DNA of 64,000 bases from Candidatus Dadabacteria bacterium (GTDB lineage: Bacteria; Desulfobacterota_D; UBA1144; Nemesobacterales; Nemesobacteraceae), in assembly GCA_028823955.1 (NCBI GenBank), contig JAPPFE010000016.1:12497-76496 (forward strand), given 5' to 3'. Shown here piece by piece: positions 34,261 through 53,544 of the stretch; positions within the stretch are counted from its first letter, which is position 1; the number at the start of each line of letters is the position of its first letter. The notes beneath the pieces were generated by a model. The model saw only the letters and a list, made by a program, of their open reading frames with translations, searched no databases and had not been told where the DNA came from. The translations under genes were made by a program, and so were the position numbers.

Positions 34261-34345
34261 TTTTGCTTCGGTATTAGATTTGTTGACTGTTTTTCTTATC
34301 TATATAAAATTAACTACTCCTTGGCTTTTTTCTATTTTCTACAGT

Positions 34346-34421
34346 TCCGGCGTAGCTCAGTTGGCAGAGCAGATGACTGTTAATCATCGGGTCGCAGGTT
34401 CGAGCCCTGCCGCCGGAGCCA
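34346..34421 (+). tRNA. tRNA-Asn (anticodon GTT)
   Basis: Hand-folded cloverleaf. Acceptor stem TCCGGCG/CGCCGGA. D-arm GCTC-AGTTGGCA-GAGC. Anticodon stem GATGA/TCATC with loop CTGTTAA. T-arm GCAGG-TTCGAGC-CCTGC. Discriminator G and encoded CCA. Confidence 0.85.
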
Positions 34422-34519
34422 CAATTAAATTGCAACTGCCTTATATCATTAAATCTTCTGAAATACAAAGAATTTCGGTATCACTATTAATACCACATTA
34501 GATAAAACTAAAAAAAAGA

Positions 34520-35212: not shown

Positions 35213-35713
35213 TGTCCATACCGCCCCCGACCATGCTTTGAAACGCCCACGGCACTTCGGATGTTTTGGCCGATGTGGCCACACAGGCGTGCTTTTCCAC
35301 ACAAATTGGTGTCATATCCCAAACCAACCTTGAAAAGCGTCATAGTGGGCGACTGAGGCCGCATATACGGGGAGTTTTTTGCCTTCAACGATCCTGACCC
35401 GCCTGCCCGCCATTGAGTGTCTGGGGGGGCATCCGAGCGGATCGAGCCTATACAAACGCGTTCTCGTGCCGGTATGTATCTCAAGGCATACTATACCGGC
35501 GTGGTTGTATTTCGGTGCCCCAAAGCACCTGGAGCGGAGATTCCTTCCAAGCGGAATCTGGCCAGAGTAACCCATTGAGGTTATAACTCTCTTCACCAAT
35601 TTGGCAGAAAGAAGTTGCTTCATTTTGCCTTTGACGGCCTGTTAATGTACATTATAATCTGTTTTCATTGGTTTTCATAGACATTCGACCGACAACTGGC
35701 GAAGAGGATTGAA

Positions 35714-35929
35714 ATGACTGCTGAAGAACGATGGGTCGGCGTCGATGATGTGGCTGCGCATCTCGATGTCAACAAGGATTCCATTTATCGTTGGATAAAC
35801 AACAAGGGTCTTCCCGCGCATAAGGTTGGCCGTCTCTTTCGTTTCAAACTGTCTGAAATCGATGACTGGATTCGTGCCGGTGGCGCGGGTGAAACAGCTT
35901 CCAACAGCCCGGGCCGCGATGGTGATTAA
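35714..35929 (+). CDS. Excisionase-family helix-turn-helix DNA-binding protein (HTH_17 / AlpA-like)
   Basis: 71 aa. WVGVDDVAAHLDVNKDSIYRWINNKGLPAHKVGRLFRFKLSEIDDWI is the canonical excisionase-family HTH. Confidence 0.7.
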   Translation: MTAEERWVGVDDVAAHLDVNKDSIYRWINNKGLPAHKVGRLFRFKLSEIDDWIRAGGAGETASNSPGRDGD

Positions 35930-35940
35930 GGAAACAAGAA

Positions 35941-38679
35941 ATGGCACTGAAGAAGTCTCAACTTTACAGCTCGCTCTGGTTCAGCTGTGACGAACTGCGC
36001 GGCGGCATGGACGCCAGCCAGTACAAGGACTATGTCCTGTTCATGCTGTTCATCAAGTACGTCTCCGACAAGTACGCCGACTCGGACGACTTTGCTCCGC
36101 CGGTGACCATCCCAGAGGGCGCGAGCTTCACCGATATGGTCAAGCTCAAGGGCAAGAGTGACATCGGCGACAAGATCAACACGCAGATCATCCGGCCGCT
36201 GATCGATAACAACTCCCGCTTGGCCCACAGCGACTTCCCCGACTTCAACGATCCAGACAAGCTCGGTGAAGGCAAGGCGATGGTGGATCGCCTGACGAAT
36301 CTGATCAGCATCTTCCAGAGGCCGGAATTGGATTTCTCGAAGAACCGGGCCGACCACGACGACATTCTTGGCGACGCCTATGAGTACCTGATGCGGCACT
36401 TCGCTACCGAGAGCGGCAAGAGTAAGGGCCAGTTCTACACGCCGTCGGAGGTCAGCCGCGTCATTGCTCAGGTCATCGGCATCTCACCCGATACCGCTGT
36501 CGCATCGACCACTGCCTACGACCCGACCTGTGGATCGGGATCGCTGCTGCTCAAGGTCGCCGCCCAAGCGGGCAAACACATCACGCTCGAAGGGCAGGAA
36601 AAGGATCAGACAACAGCAGGCCTTGCCCGCATGAACATGATCCTGCACGACTTCCCGACGGCCAACGTCCTGCAGGGCAATACGCTCGCCAGCCCCAAGT
36701 TCAAGGACGGCGAACAGCTCCGCACCTACGACTACGTGGTGGCCAATCCACCATTCTCTGACAAGACCTGGAGCAACGGCATCACGCCCAGCGCCGATCC
36801 CTATCAGCGTTTCGCTTGGGGCTCACCGCCCGGCAAACAGGGCGACTACGCCTACCTGTTGCACATCATCCGCTCGATGAAGAGTAACGGCAAAGCCGCC
36901 TGCATCTTGCCGCACGGCGTTCTGTTCCGAGGCAATGCCGAGGCCGTGATCCGCAAGAAGCTCGTGCGGTCCGGGTATCTCAAGGGCATCATCGGGCTGC
37001 CCGCCAACCTGTTCTACGGCACAGGCATCCCGGCCTGCATCCTCGTGCTCGACAAGGAGAACGCCAACGCCCGCAAGGGCATTTTCATGGTCGATGCCTC
37101 CAAAGGTTTCATCAAGGACGGTTCGAAGAACCGCCTCCGCGAGCAGGACATCCACCGAATCGTCGACACGTTCAATCGTCAGGCGGATACGCCGCGCTAC
37201 GCCCGGATGGTTCCGTTCGAGGAAATCGACGACCCGAGGAATGATTACAACCTCAACCTGCCTCGTTACATTGACAGCACCGAACCGGAGAACATCCAGG
37301 ACATCGACGGCCACCTGCGGGGTGGCATTCCGGAGCGGGACATTGACGATCTGGATATCTACTGGAAGGTGATTCCCGGCGTGCGCGAAGTGCTGTTCGA
37401 GGATGCCGTGCGCCCCGGCTACTGCCAGTTGCGACTGCCTATCACTGAAGTCAAGGCTGCGATTCTCAAACACGACGAGTTCGACGCATTCAAAGCCACT
37501 GTGACCGACATCTTCGACAAGTGGCGATCCGCAAACGTGAAGCGACTCAAGGGGTTTGATCAGGAAGGTAAGCCCAAGGAACTGATCGCAACCATTGCGG
37601 AAGATCTTCTCGCCGCATTCAAGACCGCACCGCTGCTGAATTCCTATGACATGTACCAGCACCTGATGGATTACTGGGCCGCGACGATGCAGGACGATTG
37701 CTACCTCATCGCCGCCGACGGTTGGACGGCGGAAACCCACCGAGTGCTGGAGGAGGTCAAGAGTGGCAAGAAGAAAGGTGAGATGAAGGACAAGGGCTGG
37801 GCATGCGATCTGATTCCCAAGCCCTACATCGTCGCCCGGTATTTCGCTAAAGAGCAGGTCGAGCTGGATGCCCTCCAGGCAGAACTCGACGACGCCAGCG
37901 CCAGTCTCACCGAACTGGCCGAGGAGCACGGCGGCGACGAGGGCGCACTGAAGGATGTGTCAACCAAGGGCGACGCCCAGAAGGCGTACAACCAGGCGCT
38001 TGTCGCCGTGTGGAACGAGGAAGACAAGGTGGCGTGCGACAAGTACAACACCCTAATCAACGGGACCGAAGAGTATGCGGTCGAGCTTCGCAATCTCACC
38101 GACCATCACCACATCTCGATCTTGAAGAACAGCAAGGGCAACCTGACGCTCAAGGCTATCAGGGACCGCCTGGCATCGACGGGCGACAAGATCGAGCAGA
38201 AGACGCTCATCAAGTACCTCGATGTCGACAAACAGCAGAAGGCCAAGACGAAGGAGGCCGCCGAACTGCTGACCGAAGTTGGGATGCGTTATCGCGAGCG
38301 ACTGAACGCCGACCCGCTGCCCGAGGAACTCGCGGACCTGCAAGTCACCGTCTGTTATCTGGATCTACTCGACAAACAGAGCGTCCTCAAAAGCAAGGTC
38401 AAAGATGCCGACACCGTCCTCAATCAGCTCGTCTATGACAAGTACCCCACGCTCAGCGTCAAGGAGATCAAAACGCTGGTAGTCGACGACAAGTGGCTGT
38501 CCGCCTTGGCAGCTGCTGTGCAGGGCGAACTGAACCGGGTGTCGCAGACGCTCACCGGCCGCATCCGCCAGCTAGCAGAGCGCTACGAGACGCCGCTGTC
38601 GCAGCTCACTGATCTCGTGACCGACCTATCCACCCGTGTGGACAAACACTTGGCAAGAATGAGGGCGGTATGGAACTGA
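35941..38679 (+). CDS. hsdM: Type I restriction-modification system methyltransferase subunit, long form with a C-terminal coiled-coil extension of about 430 aa
   Basis: HsdM N-terminal domain, a SAM-binding region (DPTCGSGSLLL), and the catalytic NPPF (VVANPPFSDKTW). 912 aa. Confidence 0.9.
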   Translation: MALKKSQLYSSLWFSCDELRGGMDASQYKDYVLFMLFIKYVSDKYADSDDFAPPVTIPEGASFTDMVKLKGKSDIGDKINTQIIRPLIDNNSRLAHSDFPDFNDPDKLGEGKAMVDRLTNLISIFQRPELDFSKNRADHDDILGDAYEYLMRHFATESGKSKGQFYTPSEVSRVIAQVIGISPDTAVASTTAYDPTCGSGSLLLKVAAQAGKHITLEGQEKDQTTAGLARMNMILHDFPTANVLQGNTLASPKFKDGEQLRTYDYVVANPPFSDKTWSNGITPSADPYQRFAWGSPPGKQGDYAYLLHIIRSMKSNGKAACILPHGVLFRGNAEAVIRKKLVRSGYLKGIIGLPANLFYGTGIPACILVLDKENANARKGIFMVDASKGFIKDGSKNRLREQDIHRIVDTFNRQADTPRYARMVPFEEIDDPRNDYNLNLPRYIDSTEPENIQDIDGHLRGGIPERDIDDLDIYWKVIPGVREVLFEDAVRPGYCQLRLPITEVKAAILKHDEFDAFKATVTDIFDKWRSANVKRLKGFDQEGKPKELIATIAEDLLAAFKTAPLLNSYDMYQHLMDYWAATMQDDCYLIAADGWTAETHRVLEEVKSGKKKGEMKDKGWACDLIPKPYIVARYFAKEQVELDALQAELDDASASLTELAEEHGGDEGALKDVSTKGDAQKAYNQALVAVWNEEDKVACDKYNTLINGTEEYAVELRNLTDHHHISILKNSKGNLTLKAIRDRLASTGDKIEQKTLIKYLDVDKQQKAKTKEAAELLTEVGMRYRERLNADPLPEELADLQVTVCYLDLLDKQSVLKSKVKDADTVLNQLVYDKYPTLSVKEIKTLVVDDKWLSALAAAVQGELNRVSQTLTGRIRQLAERYETPLSQLTDLVTDLSTRVDKHLARMRAVWN

Positions 38680-40520
38680 AGCCGGGATACAAACAGACGG
38701 AAGTCAGTCCTATTCCTGCAGACTTACATGCCGTTATAACTAACCCACAACGATTCAATAAAGATTGGGAGATAAAGCGGTTGGGGGATTTTGCCGACTG
38801 TGTGGCAGGTGGAACACCGAGCACGCTCAATAAAGAATATTGGGGTGGATCTATTAGATGGATGAGTTCCAGTGAATTAAACAACAAGATTATTCAGGAT
38901 GTTGAGAAGCGTATAACAGAGCGAGGTTTACGGGAATCGAATACCAAAATCATTCCGCCTAGATGTGTTTTAATAGGTTTGGCAGGTCAAGGAAAGACAA
39001 GGGGGACTGTGGCTATTAACTTGGTTGAGATTTGTACGAATCAGTCAATTGCAGCAATTTACCCCAATGAATCTTTTGTTCCAGAGTACCTCTATTATAA
39101 CCTTGATGCCCGCTACCACGAGTTACGTGGAATGTCTGCAGGAGATGGGGGTCGTGGAGGATTGAATCTTCAAATTATTCGATCTATCTTTGTGCCTTTT
39201 CCAGATATTACTGAACAATATGCAATTGCCAAAGTATTGTCGGATGTAGACGGATTACTCGCGGCCTTAGAGGTGCTGATAGTCAAAAAACGCGCCATCA
39301 AACGAGCCGCGATGCACCAACTTCTCACTGGTAGGATGCGCTTGCGGGAGTTTAACGGGGAATGGAGGACAAAGAAGCTCAGAGACTTACTTGCTTATCA
39401 GCGACCAGATAACTACATAGTGCAATCAACTGAAGATGCAAAGCATGGAGAAATCCCCGTATTAACAGCCAATAAGTCGTTTGTCTTACATTATACGGAT
39501 GAGGAGTTTGGTGTCTGTTCTGATGTTCCAGTCATTGTTTTCGACGATTTTACTACGGATTGTAAGTACGTAACATTTCCTTTCAAGGTGAAGTCGTCGG
39601 CAATAAAGCTCCTTCATGCTAACCATGACCGAATTAGTCTCAGGTATGTATACGAGCGCATGAAATTGGTTCATTTCCCGTTGGTTACTCACAAACGCTA
39701 CTATATCTCGGAGTATCAAAACATTGAGTTTTTTGTTCCTAGTTATGATGAACAAGTAGCAATTGTTTCTGTATTATCCGATATGGATGCTGAGATTGCA
39801 GCCCTCGAGCAACGTCGCGCCAAAATCGCCGACCTCAAGAAGGCGATGATGCAGGAACTGCTGACTGGCAAGACGCGGCTGGTTGAGCCTCAGGCGTTGG
39901 ATGAGCAGACCGATGCCGCGTTGGGCAACGCCAAAGGACACAACTGGGCGATCAACGAGGCAGTCGTGATCGCCACGCTGGTCAAGCACTTCGGAGGGGA
40001 GGACTACCCCTTAGGCCGCAAGCGGTACACGAAGCTTTCCTACCTGTTGCACCGCCATGTGGAACGGGAAGCCGATGGCTATCTCAAAAAGGCGGCTGGT
40101 CCCTACAACCCGCAAACCAAGTACGGTGGCCCGGAAAAGATCGCCAAGCAGAACGGCTACATCACGCAGCACAAAGGCTTGAAGGGACACAGCGGATTCA
40201 TCGCCGCAGACAACATCGCCCAGGCCGAAGGCTACTTCGAGAAGTGGTACGGCCCAGAAGTCATCCAGTGGCTGGAGCAGTTCCGCTACAAGAAGAACGA
40301 CGACTTGGAGTTGCTGGCCACCGTGGACATGGCAGCGTTGGAACTGCGAGCATCCGGAAAGAGCGTGACTGTCGCTGCCGTGAAGGACGTTATCACCAGC
40401 CATCCGGAGTGGGAGGCGAAGTTGGATCGCACCGCGTTCTCCGACGCGAACATCGCCGAAGCAATCAAACAGAGCGACGCCCTGCTGGGGGCTGAAATTG
40501 CCGGAGGTTCCCATGCCTGA
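38670..40520 (+). CDS. hsdS: Type I R-M specificity subunit with two TRDs, fused to an uncharacterised C-terminal domain of about 210 aa
   Basis: Two target-recognition-domain-like halves separated by conserved helices ([26 protein letters not shown]; [26 protein letters not shown]). The TRDs are low-GC. The ORF then continues about 210 aa in GC-rich sequence with no HsdS similarity. Its start overlaps the hsdM stop. Confidence 0.75.
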
Positions 40521-43500
40521 AAGAGCCCGACCCGAACGGCTAACCCAGAACCGCGTGGTAGCCCTGTTCACCGACAAGACCCGCTCCGACTGGCTGGAGT
40601 ATCGCTATCTCGGTGACTGGCATCAGCGTGAGAATAACCGGCCCATTGAGGCGGAACTGCTGCGAGCAAACCTCCATGAGCGTGGTTATACGGATGCGCA
40701 CATCTCAGCCGCGTTGCAAAAGCTGGAAACCGCTGCCGATACAACCGGCGTGACACTCTACCAGGCCAACTTACGCACCTACAACCTGCTACGCTACCCG
40801 GTGAAGGTGCAGGTCGCCGTCGGACGGTCGCACGAGGATGTGCATCTAATCGACTGGGAGCACCCGGAAAAGAACGACTTTGCTCTGGCCGAAGAAGTGA
40901 CCCTCAAGGGTGGCTACGAGCGCAGGCCGGACTTGGTGCTCTACGTCAACGGCATTGCGGTGGCTGTGATTGAGCTGAAACGCAGTTCGGTAGAAGTGGC
41001 CGACGGGGTGCGCCAAATCATCACGAATCAGGAAGAGATATTCAACAAGAACTTCTTTTCCGCCGTGCAATTGGTCTTCGCGGGCAACGATTCGCAGGGA
41101 CTGCGCTACGGGACCACCGGCACGCCGGAGAAGTTTTTTGTCCAGTGGAAGGATGAGGACGGCGGCACGGCGATGGAGCCGGGAACGCTCCTGGACAGGC
41201 CGCTGGCCCAGATGTGCCGAAAGGATCGCTTGCTCGATTTGATGCGGAACTTCATCATCTTCGACGCGGGCCAGAAGAAAGTGCCTCGGTCGCACCAGTA
41301 CTTCGGCCTCAAGGCCGCGCAGGAACGAATCGGCAAACGCGAGGGTGGCGTGATCTGGCACACTCAGGGCAGTGGCAAGAGCATTCTCATGGTGCTGCTG
41401 GCTAAGTGGCTGATGGAATACGACCCCGACGCTCGCATTCTGGTGGTTACCGACCGTGACGAACTGGATAAGCAGATCGTGGGCGTCATGCGTAACGCCG
41501 GGGTTATCGTCGAAGACGCCCCCTCACCGCGCATTACCTCGCGGGCGCAGTTCGTCGAGAAACTGGGCGCGACCACGCCTCGCTTGCTGTGTGCGCTGAT
41601 CCACAAATTTGACACGGCCGACCTCAGGGGCGATCCGCCGCCGATTCACGGGCGCTTCTACGTGTTCGTGGATGAGTGCCACCGCACCCAAGGCGGCGAC
41701 ATGAACCGGCAGATGAAGCGATGGATGGAGGATGCCATCTTCATCGGCTTCACCGGCACGCCGCTACTCCGCAAGGACAAGAAGACCACACGCGAAGTCT
41801 TCGGCACTTACATTCACACCTATAAGTTCCACGAGGCCGTGGCGGACAAGGTGGTGCTAGACCTCAAGTACGAAGCGCGTGATGTCCCCCAGCGGCTGAC
41901 CTCGCCGCAGGCCATCGATGCCTGGTTCAACCGGAGGACGCAGAACCTGAACAACTTCCAGAAGGCGGTGCTACGCAAGCGATGGGCAACGATGGAAGAG
42001 TTGATGAGCGCGGGTGAACGCAAACAACGCATCATCGCCAATATCATTGAAGACTTCACCCTCAAGCCGCGTCTCAATAATGATCGTGGTACAGCCATCC
42101 TAGTCGCGGCGTCGATCTACGACGCGTGCCACTACTTCCGGCTATTCCAGAATACGTCGTTTGGTCAGTATTGCGGGATCATCACCTCGTATGAACCGAA
42201 GCATAATGCCATCTCGCGTGAGCCCGCCAACAGTGACGAGCGGTATAAGTTCGATACATACACGCAGCATGTGCTATCCGACGGCCAGACGACCAAGCAC
42301 TACGAGGACGAGATGAAACGCCGGTTCATAGAGGAACCGGCCAACTGCAAGCTGCTGATCGTGGTCAGCAAGCTCCTGACCGGCTTCGATGCCCCGTCCT
42401 GCACGTACATCTACCTCGACAACGAACTGCACGACCACAACCTGTTTCAGGCGATCTGTCGGACAAACCGGCTAGATGGGGACGACAAGAACTACGGATA
42501 CATCGTGGACTTCAAGGAATTGTTCTGCGACGTGCAGGAAGCCATCGCCGTCTACAGTTCGGACGAGCTGGACATCGATGCCAACGGTAGCGATGGCAAT
42601 GTGATTGTGAAGAACTGGCTCGAAGAGGGCAAGAAGAAGCTTGATGCCGCCCGCGAGGCATTGAAGTATCTGTGTGAGCCTGTGGCTCAGCCCAGGGAGA
42701 TGGAGCAGTATCTCCACTACTTTTGTGGCGACGCCAGCGATCCGAACGCCCTCAGCGAGACCGAGGTCCCTCGTATCTCGTTCTACAAGGCTGTCGTGAC
42801 CTTCGTAAGGGCCTTTGCTGCTATTTCGCAGGACCTTTCGGACGCTGGTTACACCAATGCCGAGATTGCGGTGCTCAACAACGAATTCGAATTTTTCAGC
42901 GATACCCGAGCCGCCATCAAGAAGCACTCCGGTGAGGAACTGGACATCAAACCGTACGAAGCGGACATGCGCCACCTCATCAATACCTACATCCAGGCTG
43001 ACCCGGCCGATCAGTTGGGATCGGTGGACAACTATTCCCTGGTTGAGTTGATTATCGAGACGGGTATCCATGACGCCATTGCCAAGAAGCTCAACGAGAA
43101 GGGCAAACTCTCGAAGAACGCTGTGGCAGAGGGCATCATCAACAACGTCCGCAAGACGATCATCCGCGATCAGCTCACCGACCCGAAATTCTACGAGGAA
43201 ATGTCGAAGTTGTTGGACGACCTCATCGAAATGAAGCGGAACATTACCGAGTCGTATGAAGACTTCCTGCAGAAGGCCGAGGCACTTGTGCTCCGCATGA
43301 CTGGCAAGTCAACGAAGGGAACGCACCCCACGGTGTTGAACGGCCATCCGGAAGCAGTCCGGCTGTTTAACAATCTCGCGAGCATTCCGGCAGACACGTT
43401 TCAATGTCCCACTGACGAAGACGAGAAGGCAGAGCTCGCGTTGGACATCAACCGTGCAATGCGCGAGGAGGCACCGGCGGGATGGAAGGGAGACGACACG

Positions 43501-43605
43501 CGAGAAAAGCAGGTGCTTAACGCCCTGTTCCCCTTGATGGATCGCGACCGCAAGGCGACAGAGGCGCTGTTTGAGATTATCAAGAATCAATCGGGGTACG
43601 CATGA
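40513..43605 (+). CDS. hsdR: Type I restriction enzyme endonuclease/helicase subunit
   Basis: N-terminal nuclease domain, SF2 helicase motifs (HTQGSGKS Walker A, DECHR), and the HsdR C-terminal domain. Its start overlaps the hsdS stop. Confidence 0.9.
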
Positions 43606-44318
43606 GCGAAGTAATCGAACTTGGCGACATATCGATCACGGTGACGCGGAAAGAGATCAAGAACGTGCATCTTTCCGTCCACCCGCCCAGTGGCCGGGTC
43701 ACCATGTCCGCCCCGAAAGAGACGCGTCTGGAGGTTGCTCGCGCCTATGCCATCTCAAAGATAAGTTGGATTCGCGAGCAGCAAGAGAAGCTTCGGAAGC
43801 AGGCACGGGAAACGCCGCGTGAGTTCGTGGAGAGAGAAAGCCACTACCTGTGGGGCCGTCGATACTTGATGACGGTAATTGAGCAGGATTCGAAGCCCTG
43901 GGTCGCTCTTGATCCCAAGCGCATCACCATGAGCGTTCGCCCGGGCAGCGACCAAGCCAAAAGAGCGAGCATCATCCATGAATGGCATAAATCGCTGCTG
44001 CATGAATTCATTCCTCCGCTAATCGCCAGGTGGGAGCCGAAGTTAGGCGTTCACGTCGTAGCCTACTTCCTCCAGCGCATGAAGACCAAGTGGGGAAGCT
44101 GCAACCACAATGCGGGGCACATCAGATTGAATACGGAGCTGGTCAAAAAGCCCAAGGACTTGGTCGAATATGTCGTGGTGCATGAGATGGTCCATCTTAT
44201 AGAACCAACACACAGCGATAGGTTCATTTCGATCCTTACCGATCACTACCCATCATGGCGCGAATCCAGAGCAGAACTGAACGAATTGCCGCTGGCTGCT
44301 GAGGAGTGGAGAGAATGA
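43602..44318 (+). CDS. DUF45/YgjP-like zinc metallopeptidase (M48-type HExxH), a frequent accessory of type I R-M loci
   Basis: [18 protein letters not shown]...[20 protein letters not shown] is the WGSC...HExxH signature of DUF45. ATGA overlap with the hsdR stop. Confidence 0.75.
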
Positions 44319-45409
44319 GCGTTCTGGATGCTGTGATTGCGGTCCTTCAAGAAGCAGGTAAACCGCTTCACGCCAAGGAGATTACTAAGCGCATTCTCTC
44401 GAAAAACCTCTGGAAGACCTCCGGCAAGACCCCTGCTGCGACAGTCAGTGCCAGGCTTTACGCCGATCTCAAGAAAAACGGCGACACGTCCCCTTTCATC
44501 CTTCATGCACCTCAAAAGTTTGGTCTTAGGACGTCTAAGGCAGTTGATAAGTCGGATGTGGAAGCACAAACGAAAACAACAACTGCAACAACCGTCAAGG
44601 GCCACAGGAAGACCTATTCCTTTACCGATTCGGCTGAAAAAGTCCTCGAGAAGTTCGGCGATAAGCGGCCCATGCATTACCGCGCCATCACCAACAAAGC
44701 TCTGGAAATTGGATGGTTGTTGACCGAGGGAAAGACACCGGAAGCGTCGATGTACGCGCAAATCTTGACGGAAATTAAACGCTTTAACCGCCGTGGGAAG
44801 CAGCCTCGATTCGTTCAACATGGTAAGGGGTATGTTGGCCTTTCAAAATGGATGGGTCGGGGGCTCGCATTTGAGATCGAACAGCACAACAAAAAGGTGC
44901 GCCAGGCGCTGCATAAACGTTTGCTTGAAACGGAGTGGGATGCCTTTGAGGAATTGATTGCGCGTCTCTTGGCAGAAATGGGTTTTGAGGAAATCGAGGT
45001 TACCAGTCGCAGTAAGGATGGCGGCATCGATGTTCGGGGAACCTTGGTTGTCGGTGATGTCATTCGGACGAGAATGGCTATTCAAGTAAAGAAATGGAAG
45101 CGCAACGTACAGGCTCCGGTTGTCCAACAGGTCCGAGGGAGTCTCGGCACCCACGAGCAGGGGCTCATCATCACAACCAGTGATTTCAGTGCAGGCGCAC
45201 GCAGGGAATCCGCCAGACCGGATGCCACGCCCGTCGGGCTAATGAGTGGTGAGCAACTGGTTTTACTGCTCATCGAAAACGGCATTGGGGTTTCACGACG
45301 AAGTCATGACTTATTTGAACTCGAGGATATATCCAGTGCAGAGGTCGGCACCAGTGCTGGTGCACCCAGTAATCAATTGAATGATAAAGGACAAGAACAG
45401 CAGGAATAG
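44315..45409 (+). CDS. mrr: Mrr-like restriction endonuclease with an N-terminal HARE-HTH/winged-helix domain
   Basis: N-terminal wHTH (LDAVIAVLQEAGKPLHAKEI). A C-terminal Mrr_cat-like PD-(D/E)xK domain (GGIDVRG...IQVKKW). ATGA overlap with the DUF45 stop. Confidence 0.7.
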   Translation: MSVLDAVIAVLQEAGKPLHAKEITKRILSKNLWKTSGKTPAATVSARLYADLKKNGDTSPFILHAPQKFGLRTSKAVDKSDVEAQTKTTTATTVKGHRKTYSFTDSAEKVLEKFGDKRPMHYRAITNKALEIGWLLTEGKTPEASMYAQILTEIKRFNRRGKQPRFVQHGKGYVGLSKWMGRGLAFEIEQHNKKVRQALHKRLLETEWDAFEELIARLLAEMGFEEIEVTSRSKDGGIDVRGTLVVGDVIRTRMAIQVKKWKRNVQAPVVQQVRGSLGTHEQGLIITTSDFSAGARRESARPDATPVGLMSGEQLVLLLIENGIGVSRRSHDLFELEDISSAEVGTSAGAPSNQLNDKGQEQQE

Positions 45410-45412
45410 GAG

Positions 45413-48400
45413 ATGGCGGACCGGTCGGACACAAACAGAACGCGGGCATCCATGGCTCACCTTTTAGGTGAGGCATCGAGGAACCTTGCGCGTTTTCTGG
45501 AAAAGGTACTGCCAGGCCTTTTTGACAATTGGTGGGACGAGGCTGTCGTCAACATTCTTTCATTTCAGCAGCGGCGTCGGGTCAAAGAATGCGATATCAA
45601 TTCCTTGGCATCTTTGGATCTCGCTGCGCTGCTTCGTGTGCTTGATCAGAACTGGTATCAGATATCAACGAAACTGGAGTTGACGTCAGAGGCACGCCAC
45701 TTTGTTAAAGAGATGCAGACAGTTCGAAACAGATGGGCGCATGCGGGCAGTGAGGGATTCCCCGTAGACGACGTATACCGGGACCTGGATACGTTACAGC
45801 GCTTCGCTGTTGTCGTTGAGGCTAATGAAAGCCTGCTCGACGAAGTGCGCGAGACAAAGGCGTCCTTGCTTTCCAAGGACCGTCTTGGCCCTGATCAAGA
45901 TGATGCTGTTGTGGAAAGTCCATCTCTGGAGGCACCGGGGTCTGATACGGAATTTACGCCCGGTCAGATCGTTCATCTCAAATCAAATCCAGCCATGCGT
46001 GGTGCCGTCGTTTCCTCAATGCTAGGCAAACCGGAGAACCGATTCCTAGTGTTCATGGACGGCGAAACGCATACCTACTATGCATCACAGCTAAAAGCGG
46101 AAGACCAACCGGAGGACGAATCGCGGTTCTTGCCCTGCGATGAATTCCATTCATACCTCACCGCTTTGCAGATTCGATATCCAGGACTTTCAACGCTTTA
46201 TTCTTTGAATGCCGCCCGTGTGGATTTCATCCCATATCAATTCCGCCCCGTCTTGAGATTCATCCGATCAGATCGTCCCCGATTACTGGTTGCTGACGGT
46301 GTTGGCGTCGGCAAGACCATTGAGGCTGGTTTGATTCTCCGAGAGCTGCAGGCCAGGCGCGACATACGATCCATCTTAATCATTTGTCCCCGACCGCTTG
46401 TTACCGAACGCAAATGGCAAATTGAGATGAAGCGGTTTGAGGAGCGTTTTGTTCATCTGGATGGCCCAACACTGAGGTACTGCATCAACGAAATGGATCT
46501 GGAAGGGTTTTGGCCAGAGCAGCACCAACGAATTATCATCCCATATTCCCTGTTCGATGAAGCGCTTTTATATGGTTCGGACGGCAGGCGAAAACGCAAA
46601 AAAGGCCTGCTGGACTTGGATCCGCCCCCTCGGTTTGATTTGGTCATCGTAGACGAAGCTCATCATATACGGAACCAGGATACGTTCAGTCACAAGGCGG
46701 TGCGATTTTTCTGTGACCATGCGGAAGCCGTGATCTTTCTGACCGCGACTCCCATTCAACTCGACAATCATGACCTGTTCGTCTTGCTGAACACCCTTCG
46801 CCCCGACCTGATTCTCGATCAAGAGAGCTTCGAGCACATGTCAGAGCCGAATCCGTTCATTAATCAAGCGGTAGCCTTGGCCCGTGCCCAAGAGCCGGAA
46901 TGGGCCATCAAAGCCAAGGAGGCTCTGGACAACGCGGCGGGAACGTCTTGGGGGCAGTCAATTCTCAGGCACAATCCAGAGTTCAATCGTATAAATGCAT
47001 GGCTCGCCGACGGCAAAATCGGTTCGGAAGAGCGCGTGCAGCTGATAACCGCTCTCGAGGCTCTGCATACGTTTTCAGGGATAATCAACCGAACGCGCCG
47101 CCGCGATATTGGAGAGTTTACGGTACGCAAGCCCGAAACCGTCGTTGTTGAATTTACTTCGAATCAGAAAGATCTGCATGACGAGTTGCTTCAGGTGCAG
47201 GCAGAGATATTCAGCAGGCTTCACGGGGATGTCAATGTCAAGTTCATGATGACAACCATTCGCAGGCAGGCGGCCAGTTGTCCTTTTGGACTTGTACCCT
47301 TCCTCGAGGAAATACTGAGCCGCCACCTTGATGAATTGTCATGGGAAGAAGCGGACAACACCGAGTTTGTCCCCAAAAGCGACGCTGTTGACAGCATTGA
47401 ATCACGTATCCAGGCAATCCTTGGAAAGGCTCGTGACCTCGATCCATACGATCCGAAACTGGACGCTCTCCGCAATATCATCCGGGACAAGCAAAAGCTA
47501 CCCAATAACAAGGTGATGCTTTTCAGCAGCTTCCGTCACACGCTTCACTATCTCTATGAACATCTCAAGGCGGATGGATTTAGGGTTGGACTTGTTCACG
47601 GCGGAACACCTGATGAGGACCGGGTCGGGCTTCGGAATCGCTTTGAATTGCCGCCAAATCAGGATGACGGCCTCGACATTTTATTGTTTTCAGAGATTGG
47701 CTGCGAAGGTCTGGACTACCAGTTCTGTGATTGCATCGTCAATTACGACCTGCCATGGAACCCCATGCGGGTGGAACAGAGGATTGGCCGCATAGATCGG
47801 AATGGACAGAAGAGCGAGAGTGTCGCCATTTTCAATTTGATCACGCCGGGCACCGTCGATGCGGATATCTACGAGCGGTGCTTGGTGCGGATTGGTGTGT
47901 TCAACAGCGCCCTCGGTGGCAGCGAGGAGATACTCGGGGAGATCACCAAGGAGATTCGCAGCATCGCGGAAAATTTCTCCTTGAACGAAACAGAACGCGG
48001 AGAGCAGCTTCAACAACTGGCGGACAACAAAATCAGGCTGATACAGGAACAGGACGAACTTGAACAGAAACAACTCGAACTGTTCGGCATCCGTCTGCCC
48101 CAAGATCAGATGAAGCGGGAAATCGAGCAAGCATCGAGCTACTGGCTGTCTCCTGTATCGATACGAAGGCTTATTACGATTTACCTTCAGCGCACTTGTG
48201 GCAGGGATCAGGAATTCATACTTGGCGAAAAAGCGCTTAAAACGTTGCGTCTGTCCCAAGAAGCCAGAAACAATCTGTTGCGAGATTTCCGGAGTATCCC
48301 ACGTCAGAACACGACCGTTTATCGCGAATGGGAAAACTGGCTCAAAGGGGGGGACCCGCATCTCCTTATTACATTCGACTCCGAGTGCGCTTCGCAACAC

Positions 48401-49012
48401 CCCGAAGCGGTCTTCATAATGCCCTTTCATCCTTTTGTAAAACAGGCGGCCGCGACCTTCGATACAAAAAGGCGGGTCATGACGGTTTTGCAGTACAAAA
48501 GCAATAAAGTCCCCAAAGGCAGCTATGAATTCGCGGTCTATCAGTGGCAGTTCCACGGCGTTAGGGAGGACTTGGTTCTACAGCCGGTTGCTTCGAATGA
48601 TGTTGTAACCAAGCACATCTCCAGTCTTCTTGAGGGGGCAGAAAGCATAACAACGGAAAGAGTCGATACCCCAGATCCGGATACATGGAACGGTCTGGAT
48701 GCTCAGCATCATAAGATGTGGTCTGAGGCGCGCATCCGGCATCAGCGTAGAACCCAGGAGCTGGCGGAGTACCGGAGGGAAAGTCTTACAACAAGCCACA
48801 GAGCACGAATTGCTCTCTTGGAGGAACAACTCGAGCAGGCAACAAATGAAAGAATCCAGAAGATGCGACGTTCTCAGATAGCCGCGGCGGAGGCCGACTA
48901 TGCGCGACGCATTCAGGAGTTGGATATAGCGATGGAGAGAGCTGAGGTAACCGCCGGGCCCGTAGCTTATGGTGTCATTCAAGTCGATGAGGGCTCGACC
49001 AATGCCGAGTGA
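45413..49012 (+). CDS. 1199-aa fusion: N-terminal Swt1-like HEPN domain plus SNF2-family (SF2) helicase/ATPase plus a C-terminal domain of unknown function with coiled-coil
   Basis: HEPN R-x4-H motif in VRNRWAHAG. SNF2_N Walker A (ADGVGVGKT) and DEAH box (DEAHHIRN...LTATPIQ). Helicase_C motifs (LLFSEIGCEGLDYQ, QRIGRIDRNGQ). Starts 3 nt after the mrr stop. Confidence 0.75.
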   Translation: MADRSDTNRTRASMAHLLGEASRNLARFLEKVLPGLFDNWWDEAVVNILSFQQRRRVKECDINSLASLDLAALLRVLDQNWYQISTKLELTSEARHFVKEMQTVRNRWAHAGSEGFPVDDVYRDLDTLQRFAVVVEANESLLDEVRETKASLLSKDRLGPDQDDAVVESPSLEAPGSDTEFTPGQIVHLKSNPAMRGAVVSSMLGKPENRFLVFMDGETHTYYASQLKAEDQPEDESRFLPCDEFHSYLTALQIRYPGLSTLYSLNAARVDFIPYQFRPVLRFIRSDRPRLLVADGVGVGKTIEAGLILRELQARRDIRSILIICPRPLVTERKWQIEMKRFEERFVHLDGPTLRYCINEMDLEGFWPEQHQRIIIPYSLFDEALLYGSDGRRKRKKGLLDLDPPPRFDLVIVDEAHHIRNQDTFSHKAVRFFCDHAEAVIFLTATPIQLDNHDLFVLLNTLRPDLILDQESFEHMSEPNPFINQAVALARAQEPEWAIKAKEALDNAAGTSWGQSILRHNPEFNRINAWLADGKIGSEERVQLITALEALHTFSGIINRTRRRDIGEFTVRKPETVVVEFTSNQKDLHDELLQVQAEIFSRLHGDVNVKFMMTTIRRQAASCPFGLVPFLEEILSRHLDELSWEEADNTEFVPKSDAVDSIESRIQAILGKARDLDPYDPKLDALRNIIRDKQKLPNNKVMLFSSFRHTLHYLYEHLKADGFRVGLVHGGTPDEDRVGLRNRFELPPNQDDGLDILLFSEIGCEGLDYQFCDCIVNYDLPWNPMRVEQRIGRIDRNGQKSESVAIFNLITPGTVDADIYERCLVRIGVFNSALGGSEEILGEITKEIRSIAENFSLNETERGEQLQQLADNKIRLIQEQDELEQKQLELFGIRLPQDQMKREIEQASSYWLSPVSIRRLITIYLQRTCGRDQEFILGEKALKTLRLSQEARNNLLRDFRSIPRQNTTVYREWENWLKGGDPHLLITFDSECASQHPEAVFIMPFHPFVKQAAATFDTKRRVMTVLQYKSNKVPKGSYEFAVYQWQFHGVREDLVLQPVASNDVVTKHISSLLEGAESITTERVDTPDPDTWNGLDAQHHKMWSEARIRHQRRTQELAEYRRESLTTSHRARIALLEEQLEQATNERIQKMRRSQIAAAEADYARRIQELDIAMERAEVTAGPVAYGVIQVDEGSTNAE

Positions 49013-52004
49013 TTATGATCAAATCAGAGCGGACAATATCCGGGAATACGGTGAGGGAACCCGCCATCTATCTCTTCTTGAGCGTTTATATACGGACCGG
49101 ACGCATTTTATTTTCGAGCTGTTGCAGAACGCTGAAGACGCTGGGGCGACAAGAATTCTGTTTGAGCTTTCCGAAGAAATGCTTGAAGTCAAGCATGATG
49201 GCCGCCCCTTTAACGAGCTCGATGTGAGGGGTGTTTGTGGGGTCGGAGAAGGCGAAAAAGCTGAAGACCTGACACAAATCGGAAAATTTGGGATTGGATT
49301 TAAGTCGGTTTATGCCTACACATCCTCTCCCGAGGTTCATTCTGGGGACGAGCATTTTCGCATTGAGCATTATGTGCGTCCCTGTCCCGCTGATCCCAAA
49401 GAAGCCGGTGACTCTTGGACCACTCTTTTCTGCTTCTCGTTTGATGTACCGACGATGGAGGCTGAAACGGCTTTCAGTGAAATCGCTGCCCGGCTGCGCA
49501 ACCTGAGTGCTAGGACCCTTCTGTTTCTTCGAAGAATCAAGGAAATCGAATACAAGCTTCCCGACGAATCAAGTGGTGTATATCTGCGTGAAGAAATGCC
49601 CCGCGGTCCTGCCAGACAAGTGACCGTGATCGGGCAAAATAACGGTGAAGATGAGGATGAGAACTGGCTTGTCTTTGAGAAGCCGGTTTCCATCCCAAAT
49701 AGCGACTACCCGGTGAAGGTTGAAGTGGCCTTTAAGCTCGAGACGGACACGAAAGAAAAGACCGAGTGGATAACTCGTATCAAGGATGCACCCTTAGTGG
49801 TGTATTTCCCAACAGAAAAGCCAACTCGCTTTGGATTTCTCATTCAGGGCCCGTACAGAACTACACCGTCCCGAGACAATATTCCCAAGGATGACGATTG
49901 GAATACAAACCTTGTTGAGGAGACGGCCAGCCTGCTCGTGGATGCGTTGATAAATCTAAGAACAATGGGGTTGCTGACAGTATCTTTACTCGAATCAATG
50001 CCTATCCGAATGGATGATTTTCCTAAAGGAAGCATGTTTTTTCCCATAACCGAATCTGTCCGCGCTGCCTTTCTTGAACATGAATTGCTGCCTGCGGACG
50101 ACGGAACTTTCGCGAACGCAAAAGACGCCAAGCTCGCCCGTGGTGGGGATTTGAGGAAGCTCCTTGGCCAGGAGCAACTCCGCTCCCTATTTCAATCCGG
50201 CGGTCAGGTTAAATGGTTGGTTGGGACAATCACTCGGGACCGAAAGCCGGACTTGCGAACGTATCTGATGAGTGAGCTTGGTGTGGAGGAGATCACGCCC
50301 GATGGATTTGCCCGAAAGCTCTCAGGGACATTTTTGAAAGTTCAACCAGATGACTGGATGACTTTAATGTACGGGTATGTTGGTGATGAAAAAGCTCTCT
50401 GGCAGACGGGAAGCGGATACTGGAATCCTCCAGGCCCGTTACGTTCTAGACCGATTATTCGTCTTCAAGATGGTTCACAAGTTATACCGTTCCGGGAGGA
50501 TGGATCTCCAAATGCATACTTGTCGGATGGCAATCACACTGAGACTTCCCTGCCAGTCGTAAAGGCAGATCTCTGCCGGCACAAGGAGACCCAACAGTTT
50601 TTAAGGGCCCTGGGTATCCCCGAGTTGGATCTCGTGGAAGAAGTCATTGAAAAGGTCCTGCCAAAATATGCAAGCGACGATTCAGTAGTTGCTATTGAAG
50701 AGCACCAACGCGATATCATTGTAATTGAAAAGGCTTACGGCACGGATTCCCAAGAAAAGAAGAGTCGCCTCCGTGATCGGCTATGTGAAACGCCTTTCGT
50801 GCGTGCAGAGAGTCAAGATGTCGAAGAGCCTATGTACCGGAAGCCGTGCGAGCTTTATTTCGGAAGCAATGAACTGCGATTGTATTTTTCTGGAAACAAC
50901 GCGATTGGATTCGTCAACACTGAATACCCTGAATCCGTTAGATCGCTGTTTGAGGATTTTGGGGTAGTGGATTCTGTACGGGTTTCCCGGAAGGGACAAA
51001 ACGGGCAAGGGCATGTTGTTCTTAAAGATCATCATGGTTGGCATGAAAGGGGTCTTGATGGTTTTGATCCAGACATTTTTGTTGAGGGGTTAGAAATCGC
51101 GTTGGCTTCACCAACGCTGGAGAAAAGTCAATTCATCTGGAATAACATTGCTGTTCGACATTTTTCATGCATTCGTGGTGTGGTCGAGTCGTGTCCGCGA
51201 CAAACTTATGAGGGCAGCACCGAGGAAGATCGAATATCAGAATTTGGACGTTTGCTTATAGAAAATACTTGGCTGCCGTTTTCAGATGGAAGCCTGAAGA
51301 AACCGGGGGAACTCACACTCGATGATCTTCCCGACTCCTTCATAAGAGACGAAAAGCTGGCCCAGCAACTCGGGATGAAGCTGGATCTTATTGCTAAACT
51401 CGCGGAAGAAACAGGCGTAACTGCTGAGGATATCGAACTGCTTAAACTTCATCCGACAGAGTTCCAGCAATGGAAAGCGGCAATATCAGCCGCTAAGGAA
51501 AAACCGGCATTCCCCGAGAGGGCTTCTTCGGACCCGGAGCGCAGACGAGAGAAACTTACTGAGCAACTTGGCGACTCTCCCACCAAGAAATACGAGCAAC
51601 GGGACAGAAGTGTTCGGACAACAAGAAGTGCAATTGATCCGGTTCTGTGGCTCAGGAATCAATACAAGAATGATGCTGGACAGATGATATGCCAGATATG
51701 CAAAGAGGAGATGCCTTTTAGGAAGCGTGATGGGGAATACTATTTCGAAGCTGTTGAGGCTCTTACCAAAGATCATTTCACAATAGAACATGAAGCACAA
51801 TTCTTGGCTTTGTGTCCTTTGTGCTCAGCAATGTACAAAGAATTCATTAAGCCTGATGAAGAGGCTATGGTGGAATTGAAACACGTAATAAGGAACACGG
51901 ATGAGTGCGAAGTTCCTCTGCGTCTCGGGGGACTGAATACAAGCATTCGATTTGTCGAAGCCCACTTTCAGGATATCAGGACCATACTTGAGGAGCAGGA
52001 ATGA
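49002..52004 (+). CDS. 1011-aa protein: N-terminal sacsin/Hsp90-like GHKL ATPase, large middle region, and a C-terminal Cys4 HNH/zinc-ribbon-like module
   Basis: Bergerat-fold motifs ELLQNAEDAGAT (N box), HDGRPF (G1) and GKFGIGFKSVY (G2). C-terminal CQIC...H..IEHE...CPLC. Its start overlaps the upstream gene's stop (ATGCCGAGTGA). Confidence 0.7.
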   Translation: MPSDYDQIRADNIREYGEGTRHLSLLERLYTDRTHFIFELLQNAEDAGATRILFELSEEMLEVKHDGRPFNELDVRGVCGVGEGEKAEDLTQIGKFGIGFKSVYAYTSSPEVHSGDEHFRIEHYVRPCPADPKEAGDSWTTLFCFSFDVPTMEAETAFSEIAARLRNLSARTLLFLRRIKEIEYKLPDESSGVYLREEMPRGPARQVTVIGQNNGEDEDENWLVFEKPVSIPNSDYPVKVEVAFKLETDTKEKTEWITRIKDAPLVVYFPTEKPTRFGFLIQGPYRTTPSRDNIPKDDDWNTNLVEETASLLVDALINLRTMGLLTVSLLESMPIRMDDFPKGSMFFPITESVRAAFLEHELLPADDGTFANAKDAKLARGGDLRKLLGQEQLRSLFQSGGQVKWLVGTITRDRKPDLRTYLMSELGVEEITPDGFARKLSGTFLKVQPDDWMTLMYGYVGDEKALWQTGSGYWNPPGPLRSRPIIRLQDGSQVIPFREDGSPNAYLSDGNHTETSLPVVKADLCRHKETQQFLRALGIPELDLVEEVIEKVLPKYASDDSVVAIEEHQRDIIVIEKAYGTDSQEKKSRLRDRLCETPFVRAESQDVEEPMYRKPCELYFGSNELRLYFSGNNAIGFVNTEYPESVRSLFEDFGVVDSVRVSRKGQNGQGHVVLKDHHGWHERGLDGFDPDIFVEGLEIALASPTLEKSQFIWNNIAVRHFSCIRGVVESCPRQTYEGSTEEDRISEFGRLLIENTWLPFSDGSLKKPGELTLDDLPDSFIRDEKLAQQLGMKLDLIAKLAEETGVTAEDIELLKLHPTEFQQWKAAISAAKEKPAFPERASSDPERRREKLTEQLGDSPTKKYEQRDRSVRTTRSAIDPVLWLRNQYKNDAGQMICQICKEEMPFRKRDGEYYFEAVEALTKDHFTIEHEAQFLALCPLCSAMYKEFIKPDEEAMVELKHVIRNTDECEVPLRLGGLNTSIRFVEAHFQDIRTILEEQE

Positions 52005-52293
52005 GATCGAAAGTAAGTCACAGAAAGCATTTATTGGGCGTGTGCGGTAACAATTCCACAACGTGGGCTTCATTAAGGGCAAGGCAGTGGTTCTGACAGG
52101 GACGTCTTCACAGCAGGGCGAGTCATGATGTTTGCAAAGAGACACATCTCGATTCGCGTTCCATGGCATGACACAGGATGGGACGGTTGCGTTTGTGCTA
52201 ATCCCCTCCTCAACGGGTCATGTCTCAAACTCAAGCGGATTGGGCAAGAGAGGGATGACGCGGTTGAAGAAGCGGTCGTTGGCCGTTCCTTCC

Positions 52294-53487: not shown

Positions 53488-53488
53488 T

Positions 53489-53525
53489 CTAGGCTATTTC
53501 AAATTCTTTTTTTGAAATAGCCTAG
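53489..53525. promoter_or_regulatory. Perfect 15-bp inverted repeat with a 7-nt T-rich loop (CTAGGCTATTTCAAA-ttctttt-TTTGAAATAGCCTAG). It is either an operator or a bidirectional terminator hairpin.
   Basis: I verified base by base that the two arms are exact reverse complements. It lies between the start of the DUF4143 ATPase gene and the end of the small gene at 53545-53892. Confidence 0.35.
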
Positions 53526-53544
53526 ATCCTGCTTCGGGAGTTCT

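Follow-up and report, generated by a model that had tools for sequence, protein, structure and literature searches.

Operons that join a GHKL ATPase of the MORC or paraMORC type with a SWI2/SNF2 helicase have been described as resembling restriction-modification (R-M) systems (Iyer, Abhiman and Aravind 2008, PMC2292703). HEPN and other toxins are embedded in R-M operons, and a fusion of a Swt1-type HEPN domain to SWI2/SNF2 is listed in a 2013 HEPN survey (PMC3710099). Here we analyze an array of eight plus-strand genes in a 64-kb stretch of a Candidatus Dadabacteria genome (contig JAPPFE010000016.1; the window, below, is this whole stretch), in which a type I R-M operon, a gene for a Mrr-like nuclease and a gene pair for a HEPN-SNF2 protein and a GHKL ATPase follow one another. 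We suggest, with a probability of about 0.7, that the array is a defence island next to tRNA-Asn, compacted and with a type I operon as its base, and that its three parts have been joined without intergenic DNA. We read it not as one machine but as separable defence modules stacked together and probably co-transcribed. In the literature that we searched, the SNF2-GHKL pair was not found named, and only the 2008 and 2013 comparative-genomics papers bear on it.

The eight open reading frames (ORFs) span positions 35714-52004 and encode, in order, a helix-turn-helix (HTH) protein, HsdM, HsdS, HsdR, a DUF45 peptidase, the Mrr-like nuclease, HEPN-SNF2 and GHKL (Table 1). The domain labels of all eight genes agree with Pfam, NCBIfam and PADLOC. 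Read from the sequence, the seven junctions are a gap of 11 nucleotides (nt; the HTH stop codon ends at 35929 and the hsdM ATG is at 35941, with AAGGAA upstream), overlaps of 10 nt (hsdS ATG at 38670, hsdM stop ending at 38679), 8 nt (hsdR ATG at 40513, hsdS stop at 40518-40520), 4 nt (ATGA at 43602-43605) and again 4 nt (ATGA at 44315-44318), a gap of 3 nt (mrr TAG ending at 45409, SNF2 ATG at 45413) and an overlap of 11 nt between SNF2 and GHKL. An earlier sequence-only reading of this DNA had claimed that every junction that it inspected is an overlap or a gap of at most 3 nt. This holds for the six junctions that it listed, from hsdM/hsdS to SNF2/GHKL, each of which matches our own reading, and fails for HTH/hsdM, which it did not list. 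Among the other same-strand neighbours of the window, just 7 of 23 pairs lie at most 11 nt apart by crude gene calls, so that seven tight junctions running would be improbable by chance (about 0.3^7 = 2e-4 if the junctions are independent).

The overlaps do not result from misassigned start codons, a weakness that the sequence-only reading had itself foreseen, because relatives show the same overlaps. The 11-nt SNF2/GHKL overlap is exact in 20 other loci, and plasmids of Methylomagnum and Aeromonas have the 10-nt hsdM/hsdS overlap and an hsdR/DUF45 overlap of 4 or 1 nt. Independent gene calls on the source contig place the boundaries of all eight genes where we do and give a GHKL product of 1000 amino acids (aa), and proteins identical to SNF2 and GHKL are present on a metagenome contig (ENA ERZ23495471); NCBI assigns the GHKL protein to a Candidatus Dadabacteria MAG (metagenome-assembled genome). 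An alternative hsdR start, the in-frame TTG at 40498, would only enlarge the overlap with hsdS. The sole ambiguous start among the eight genes is that of GHKL, for which in-frame ATGs at 48969, 48987 and 49002 precede the end of the SNF2 TGA at 49012. We place it at 49002 because Met-1 of 'MPSDYD' is invariant in 31 homologues. All eight ORFs are full length relative to homologues, and the catalytic motifs are present (RNRWAH in HEPN; motifs I, II and VI in SNF2; N-box and G-boxes in GHKL; D...QVK in Mrr; PD...ELK in HsdR; HEMVH in DUF45).

Table 1. Array genes and associated features, with positions in the 64-kb window
Feature	Position	Strand	Basis
tRNA-Asn (GTT), left landmark of the island	34346..34421	+	ARAGORN; Rfam tRNA 68 bits
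Sigma70-like promoter candidate, TTGACG-16-TATAAT	35631..35658	+	Consensus match only, 11/12; best in 34000-53500
Tandem direct repeat GTTTTCAT-TG-GTTTTCAT, candidate operator (inferred)	35661..35678	+	2 nt past -10 box
HTH_17/excisionase-family DNA-binding protein, leader gene, 71 aa	35714..35929	+	PF12728 1.1e-14
hsdM, long-form type I methyltransferase, 912 aa	35941..38679	+	N6_Mtase PF02384 4.9e-97; HsdM_N PF12161
hsdS, 616 aa, two target-recognition domains and 211-aa C-terminal extension	38670..40520	+	Methylase_S, 2 stretches
hsdR, 1030 aa, N-terminal nuclease and superfamily 2 motor	40513..43605	+	HSDR_N; SWI2_SNF2; T1R_D3-like
YgjP/DUF45 zincin (SprT-like) metallopeptidase, 238 aa	43602..44318	+	PF01863 1.4e-56; SprT-like 2.5e-8
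HARE-HTH x2 and Mrr_cat, type IV-like restriction endonuclease, 364 aa	44315..45409	+	PF05066 3.3e-38 (2 stretches); PF04471 2.3e-25
Swt1-like HEPN and RapA/DrmD-like SNF2 ATPase, 1199 aa	45413..49012	+	HEPN_Swt1 3.9e-18; SNF2-rel_dom; Helicase_C
Sacsin-like GHKL ATPase, 1000 aa	49002..52004	+	PF25794 SACS 1.2e-18; NF047352 93 bits
PDC-S68-type superfamily 1 (SF1) helicase 5' remnant, pseudogene, 84 codons, starts 'RVPWHDTGWDGCVC...'	52125..52379	+	PADLOC 8.4e-20, profile positions 1-57 of 1221
AAA_14 and DUF4143 ATPase (PDC-S01), convergent, 389 aa by independent gene call	52294..53487	-	Pfam; PADLOC 2.3e-110; 3' end overlaps remnant

The separability of the parts is most apparent for the last two genes. 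A genome scan with the SNF2 protein gave 75 loci (numbered, like our other comparison loci, with an L) from many phyla; viral contigs held no SNF2 relative. By tBLASTn, a GHKL gene adjoins SNF2 on the same strand in about 60 of the 75, and its presence directly downstream is near-universal given enough DNA. When all neighbouring ORFs were clustered, the shared families were SNF2 itself (71 loci) and GHKL (56 loci); the next was found in at most 10, a recurrence due to host synteny in Poribacteria. Pfam sorts the upstream ORFs into 183 families and those downstream into 81, rpoB, groEL, pyrF and homoserine dehydrogenase among them. Even the closest SNF2 relatives (L001, 94%; L002, from the cultured Desulfobulbus alkaliphilus DSM 24258, 93-94%; L005, 89%) lie in unrelated contexts, beside genes for HerA/HhH-GPD, DUF499 or homoserine dehydrogenase, and dozens of loci have the pair with no adjoining type I R-M, DUF45 or Mrr gene. 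The SNF2/GHKL junction is at most 20 nt in 40 of 65 loci. Comparison across these genomes shows HEPN-SNF2 and GHKL as a self-contained and horizontally mobile two-gene module, with an 11-nt overlap conserved across phyla.

The Mrr-like gene keeps other company. Its product has the catalytic core DGGIDV...IQVKKW (D...QVK) and a HARE-HTH reader, the features of a type IV enzyme, with PADLOC matches to PDC-S02 (2.6e-39) and mREase_IV (2.3e-13); dependence on modified DNA is predicted. A scan of metagenomes with this protein gave 71 loci, from which we counted those with at least 1.5 kb of flank. Type I parts lie upstream of mrr in 18 of 36, with DUF45 directly upstream in seven, and SNF2 never follows mrr in the 40 loci whose downstream DNA reaches at least 1.5 kb. 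In ten further loci mrr follows DUF45 or hsdR at 12-51 nt, and the type I genes there are 22-46% identical to those of the window. These loci show the HARE-HTH/Mrr gene as a recurrent 3' rider of type I operons, unrelated type I families included. Adjacency of mrr and SNF2 was found elsewhere only in L003, L014 (where mrr is truncated by IS21) and L086 (at a contig end).

At the 5' side of the array, HsdM scores 254.9 bits against TIGR00497 (cutoff 242.75) and matches PADLOC MTase_I (PDLC03027) over its full length, HsdS residues 3-405 cover Specificity_I profiles end to end (PADLOC), and HsdR scores 474 bits against TIGR00348 (cutoff 284.55) and has the nuclease motif PDLV...IELK. By domain criteria, hsdM-hsdS-hsdR is thus a type I R-M gene set, with predicted activity. 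The DUF45 protein, with its HEMVH motif at residue 194, belongs to the same company: homologues labelled 'SprT family zinc-dependent metalloprotease' follow hsdR on plasmids that carry relatives of this hsdM family (72-76% identity). In Methylomagnum, hsdM and hsdS overlap by 10 nt and, further along, hsdR and the SprT/DUF45 gene by 4 nt. On an Aeromonas veronii plasmid (L152, 8081-18419) the order is WYL, hsdM, hsdS (overlapping hsdM by 10 nt), a hypothetical gene, SLATT, hsdR and SprT, where overlaps join all genes from hsdM onward, WYL ends 8 nt ahead of hsdM, and a SLATT gene pair is embedded between hsdS and hsdR. On pRadio3 of Deinococcus radiophilus (L153, 4345-14455) a full-length TmtA gene (PADLOC 4e-193) precedes hsdM, hsdS and DUF262. 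Since the plasmid relatives share them, the hsdM/hsdS and hsdR/DUF45 overlaps are ancestral to the family. These loci show hsdM-hsdS-hsdR-DUF45 as a conserved unit, a chassis, on which leaders (HTH_17, WYL, a hypothetical protein or none) and riders (on plasmids, a SLATT pair, DUF262, toxin-antitoxin modules or TmtA) vary. Our literature search retrieved nothing on a link between DUF45 and type I enzymes, and we draw that link from the present loci.

The C-terminal extension of HsdS (residues 406-616, window 39885-40520) has no Pfam match and, in PADLOC, resembles only the C-terminal part of DarG, and that weakly (2e-5). On the plasmids HsdS is about 415 aa long and separate small or rider genes follow, so that the extension may be a fused rider domain.

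Base composition also differs among the parts. The G+C content at third codon positions (GC3) is 0.80 for hsdM, 0.76 for hsdR and 0.67 for DUF45; it is 0.49 for HTH, 0.55 for hsdS, 0.55 for mrr, 0.58 for SNF2 and 0.48 for GHKL, and 0.56-0.61 for host genes. This contrast suggests a mosaic. Among the SNF2 loci, the full hsdM-to-GHKL set recurs only in L003, a contig of a metagenome-assembled genome (MAG) labelled Bacteroidota. BLASTn aligns it over 35928-38724 at 83.5% and 39275-49526 at 90%, the second alignment ending with the L003 contig in the 5' part of GHKL. The alignment shows that at least the stretch from hsdM into the 5' end of GHKL (to 49526) was later transferred as one block. Homology begins at 35928, one base before the HTH stop codon ends, and L003 therefore lacks the HTH gene.

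The first target-recognition domain of hsdS (38725-39274) is the only hsdM-GHKL segment that does not align with L003, and as the sole break it indicates a change of target-recognition domain, that is, a specificity swap. Within L003 525-8190, hsdM is interrupted by an in-frame TAA at codon 263 and the reading frame of hsdR shifts near 7350-7410, with DUF45, mrr and SNF2 intact. These lesions represent either real decay of the type I genes or errors of MAG assembly.

The sequence-only reading had argued that the Mrr-like enzyme, the peptidase and the pair are co-regulated with the type I enzyme and do not look like independently acquired islands, and had proposed that recurrence of the order hsdR-DUF45-mrr-SNF2-GHKL would bear this out. 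The whole hsdM-to-GHKL block recurs once, in L003, and the modules are mostly found apart. The argument against independent acquisition runs counter to the autonomy of the pair in dozens of loci, to the absence of SNF2 after mrr in all 40 loci, to the differences in GC3 and to the other riders that the same type I family carries elsewhere. In favour of the earlier reading, DUF45 and mrr are recurrent partners in type I operons.

Several observations weigh against our interpretation. MAG taxonomy and the lesions of L003 may be assembly artefacts. Adjacency of type I genes plus DUF45 to SNF2-GHKL arose at least twice more, in L011, where HTH, hsdM, hsdS, hsdR and DUF45 are followed by the pair without mrr, and in L086, which has an unrelated hsdR and a 1-nt gap between mrr and SNF2; with L014 (mrr-SNF2-GHKL), this recurrence makes some functional affinity between modules possible. 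Weak internal plus-strand promoter-like sites (9/12) are present at 39749, 46510 and 48391. Finally, the HEPN-less forms of the pair have no recognisable nuclease, and its role in defence is predicted.

These recurrences, together with the zero-spacer packing and the hsdM-to-GHKL block common to L003, could be taken to mean that the array is one integrated system, with a C-protein-like controller and with Mrr, the peptidase, SNF2 and GHKL as subunits of the type I enzyme or its obligate partners. We think this improbable, given that the modules occur alone far more often than together, that L003 is without the HTH gene and has hsdM and hsdR apparently disrupted and mrr and SNF2 intact, and that the HTH protein does not belong to the C-protein family and has no C-box palindromes. 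The description of the array as layered, which the sequence-only reading had also offered, is fair for gene content; functional dependence between the layers is not supported. We return to stacked, separable modules, and regard the eight genes together as a defence island of ordinary kind that is unusually compact. More generally, type I R-M operons may serve as chassis that gather riders and move them blockwise between distant bacteria.

How the array is expressed can be considered from its punctuation. The one strong promoter candidate sits 55 nt 5' of the HTH start, and there is no space for regulatory DNA between the array genes. Consensus scans found 15 promoter-like sites, compared with 13.5 +/- 3.6 in shuffled sequence, and 20 terminator-like sites, compared with 20.1 +/- 4.9, so that neither is enriched. 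Separate transcription from internal promoters or terminators, which would speak against a single mRNA, thus finds no sign in the form of an excess of such sites. The claim of one transcript is favoured by the packing, by the upstream promoter candidate and by this lack of internal enrichment, as far as consensus scans go; a single transcript with translational coupling is the simplest reading of the packing. We found no terminator after GHKL, where the 120 nt downstream fold worse than shuffles (z = +2.7).

The leader HTH protein scores 49.9 bits against the excisionase model TIGR01764 (cutoff 28.8) and 69.6 bits against the MAD1 model, below its cutoff of 80 (PADLOC mad1, 2e-9). Pfam and NCBIfam gave no HTH_3 match, and 35560-35730 contains no inverted repeat of the C-box type. 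The suggestion that this protein acts like a C-protein does not survive as family membership: it is HTH_17 and not XRE/HTH_3, it has no palindromic operator, and the gene is missing in L003. The leader is HTH_17 in L011, and a WYL or hypothetical protein takes its position in the plasmid homologues. A regulatory role is plausible, yet the block can do without the gene. Direct repeats are often the binding sites of excisionase-type proteins. The tandem GTTTTCAT repeat past the promoter candidate occurs once in the window, and 7 of 100 shuffles matched it even with 2 mismatches permitted; the repeats could serve as the operator of the HTH_17 protein.

The two proteins of the SNF2-GHKL module deserve closer description, since this module is the most interesting part of the array and worth follow-up. 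The HEPN domain occupies about residues 23-135 of the SNF2 protein, with RNRWAH at 105-110. In an alignment of 41 sequences RNRWAH is at least 95% conserved, with conservation of SNF2 motifs I, II and VI as well; R105 and H110 are invariant in 32 sequences. HEPN is found in 38 of 71 loci and is always fused. We rejected the idea that a split HEPN gene lies upstream of HEPN-less SNF2 genes, as the profile matched in those 38 loci and never in a separate gene. Presence in about half of the loci marks HEPN as an add-on effector outside the core. Among solved structures, RapA is nearest to the SNF2 protein (best PDB match, 2.7e-36). The structure model of HEPN-SNF2 is too poor to use as a whole (predicted local distance difference test score, pLDDT, 52.8). 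Between HEPN and motor, residues ~181-230 (window 45953-46102) are predicted to form a small beta-barrel (pLDDT 71-79). The N-terminal Tudor/KOW-like domains of RapA contact RNA polymerase, and the modelled barrel is reminiscent of them.

GHKL belongs to a large family (2028 clusters at 50% identity, E <= 1e-30), and the pair is very widespread, with thousands of clusters in Thermodesulfobacteriota, Bacteroidota, Poribacteria, Chloroflexota, plasmids of Alphaproteobacteria and others. Its model (pLDDT 79) has Hsp90, MutL and sacsin SR1 as top PDB folds over the first ~250-300 residues, and its N-box, DxG box and G-rich boxes are invariant in 31 homologues. The remaining ~700 residues, with no Pfam match, form a long middle region of alpha/beta type and end in a CxxC...CxxC zinc ribbon (residues 897-941). 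The PADLOC match to TmtA is partial (4.7e-70; residues 36-786, profile positions 33-808 of 1302). The zinc ribbon has a weak likeness to the McrA HNH domain (E 0.1) and no conserved His, and the GHKL homologue of Ensifer matches mREase_IV (2.7e-6). The C-terminus is a tentative candidate for an active HNH nuclease, the matches being weak and no His conserved. In each of the 40 complete pairs GHKL has diverged further than SNF2 (median identity to the window 36% vs 70%), which we read as a variable sensor (GHKL) with a conserved motor (SNF2). One conserved and one fast-evolving partner is the pattern expected of a system of motor or effector plus sensor.

Small ORFs upstream of or inserted in the pair are BrnT, DUF6883 or PIN toxin-antitoxin genes, or encode a protein of ~210 aa without family match. 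BrnT and DUF6883 genes overlap the start of some HEPN-less SNF2 genes. The ~210-aa gene, conserved and without Pfam or PADLOC match, lies between SNF2 and GHKL in L016, L030, L031, L042, L046, L048 and L064, and a PIN-domain gene does so in L033 and L057. A four-gene variant is found on the conjugative plasmid pCTYH.Ch1_3 of Ensifer adhaerens (L149, 8286-18542), where a hypothetical protein (184 aa), a HEPN-less SNF2, GHKL and a RecB-like PD-(D/E)XK nuclease with SF1 helicase (1129 aa) follow at junctions of -20, 0 and 11 nt. This nuclease-helicase may stand in for the missing HEPN.

The SNF2 protein resembles DrmD most closely among profiles (PADLOC 3.4e-113; NF038317 307.6 bits), and this raises the possibility that the pair is a DISARM- or Hma-like restriction module in which self and non-self are told apart by methylation from the neighbouring HsdM. 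MORC/paraMORC GHKL and SNF2 operons are R-M-like and often near methylases (PMC2292703), and in a few loci Eco57I or N6_Mtase genes precede the pair. On the other hand, the NF038317 score is below the cutoff of 610, none of DrmA, DrmB (DUF1998), DrmC and DrmMI is among the window genes, and DrmA, DrmB and DrmC are likewise absent from the conserved neighbours. Each methylase family matches just 2-3 of 134 distinct upstream ORFs, and many pairs lie amid housekeeping genes with no methylase within 5-6 kb. We consider such a dependence on HsdM unlikely.

We put forward, tentatively and as a doubtful proposal still, that the pair may instead be an autonomous, so far unnamed two-gene anti-mobile-element system. 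If so, invader DNA would be recognised by a rapidly diversifying GHKL clamp, which would also control the SNF2 motor, RapA/DrmD-like and unusually conserved; members with HEPN, half of the family, would kill abortively, and the nuclease-less half may remodel or silence DNA and not cut it. Copies in the cultured Desulfobulbus alkaliphilus DSM 24258 and on the Ensifer adhaerens plasmid make the pair directly testable.

For the array as a whole, we propose a model in which the eight genes would be read as one mRNA from the promoter at 35631-35658 and translationally coupled over the overlaps. The HTH_17 leader would probably autoregulate this promoter, possibly via the GTTTTCAT direct repeats, as a replaceable accessory and not part of the core. 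HsdM2S would methylate a bipartite site, and HsdR would translocate on and cut unmethylated DNA. In what is the weakest inference of the model, the SprT-like zincin may remove or restrain HsdR complexes that are bound to DNA or stalled. Mrr would cut DNA with foreign modifications that escapes the type I enzyme. The fast-evolving GHKL clamp would sense or load on invader DNA and work with the conserved SNF2 translocase, and the HEPN RNase, in the HEPN-bearing half of the family, would be the terminal abortive effector. In this model the layers would act independently, and compaction would come from selection for co-transfer and co-expression, not from mechanistic interdependence.

The surroundings of the array hold further features. 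Directly after tRNA-Asn lies an ORF of 230 aa (34520-35212, plus strand, GC 0.37) with the near-repeat LIDYYKQNN / LIDYYKQDN and no Pfam, NCBIfam or PADLOC family match. An Rfam scan of 33-55 kb found nothing but tRNA-Asn, and a megablast of 34300-52600 against E. coli genomes gave no match. After GHKL, the PDC-S68 remnant suggests that a ninth gene formerly belonged to the array and is now cut short at the point where the convergent PDC-S01 gene sets in. The corresponding helicase (~1200 aa) is full length after GHKL in L014 (1247 aa), runs off the contig end in L006 and appears split over several ORFs in L052. A PDC-S68 gene also follows a type ISP enzyme on a Paracoccus plasmid. Just upstream of the minus-strand PDC-S01 gene, 53487-53527 holds a perfect 17-nt inverted repeat (ATCTAGGCTATTTCAAA / TTTGAAATAGCCTAGAT, 7-nt spacer), which could be an operator, or the terminator of a 115-aa ORF at 53545-53892. 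Beyond the convergent gene lie uvrA and glyA.

The 84-codon remnant, the hsdM stop and hsdR frameshift of the L003 block and the lack of mobility genes (no integrase or mobility gene by Pfam in the flanks) and of att repeats (none of the att type for the tRNA-Asn 3' end, and no long bounding direct repeats, in the window) would also fit mere compaction of a decaying island, some parts of which are no longer expressed or functional. The eight full-length ORFs, their intact catalytic motifs and the strong conservation of SNF2 make this very improbable, and a stack of separable modules remains our preferred reading.

Among known systems, type I operons with accessory genes such as hsd-prrC share with the array a co-oriented, overlapping hsdM/S/R core accompanied by unrelated defence genes. 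They differ in that here the riders stand at the 3' end and include a type IV Mrr and a 6.6-kb SNF2/GHKL module, and that the leader is HTH_17, not WYL or none. C-protein-controlled R-M systems likewise have a small DNA-binding protein first in the operon, behind its only strong promoter; here it is HTH_17 in place of XRE/HTH_3, there are no palindromic C-boxes, and the leader is not kept with its R-M genes, being absent from L003 and the plasmid homologues. MADS resembles the 5' end of the array in having a small HTH_17 gene directly before an adenine methyltransferase and a specificity subunit, and mad1, mad2 and mad5 profiles match. We rejected membership, since the MAD1 score falls short of its cutoff and MAD2 reaches 36 vs 720, type I profiles scoring far higher; mad3, mad4, mad6, mad7 and mad8 are not among the PADLOC matches listed (for SNF2, the best 25 of 40).

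For the pair, PADLOC 2.0 recognises only DrmD-like and TmtA-like proteins. With class 1 DISARM and RapA-like proteins it shares DrmD as best profile and RapA as best solved relative; we rejected DISARM membership on the DrmD score and on the lack of DrmA, DrmB and DrmC among the window genes and conserved neighbours. The SNF2 protein also differs in carrying an N-terminal HEPN. HmaC is not a counterpart of GHKL, being a DUF499 protein (PMC12839542). The window GHKL matches profiles of TmtA, the single-gene anti-phage system Tiamat, and true TmtA adjoins the same hsdM family in Deinococcus radiophilus. TmtA has 1300-1700 aa and a C-terminal DUF3883/PD-(D/E)XK nuclease; BLASTP of the window GHKL against the Deinococcus protein covers the ATP-binding core only, and we rejected Tiamat membership for a protein of 1000 aa that has no nuclease domain and is always paired with SNF2.

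The pair also resembles the MORC/paraMORC operons, in which a GHKL gene adjoins an SNF2 helicase gene, in laterally mobile, defence-island contexts and with an occasional link to nucleases and methylases (PMC2292703). Here the GHKL protein is sacsin-like (PF25794/NF047352) and not a recognised MORC or paraMORC, a Swt1-type HEPN RNase, which about half of the loci have fused to SNF2, takes the place of the nuclease, and the zinc ribbon is weakly HNH-like without the conserved His. If the pair does form an autonomous system, it would parallel, in prokaryotes, the eukaryotic MORC-SNF2 partnership and the combination of GHKL and HEPN in sacsin.

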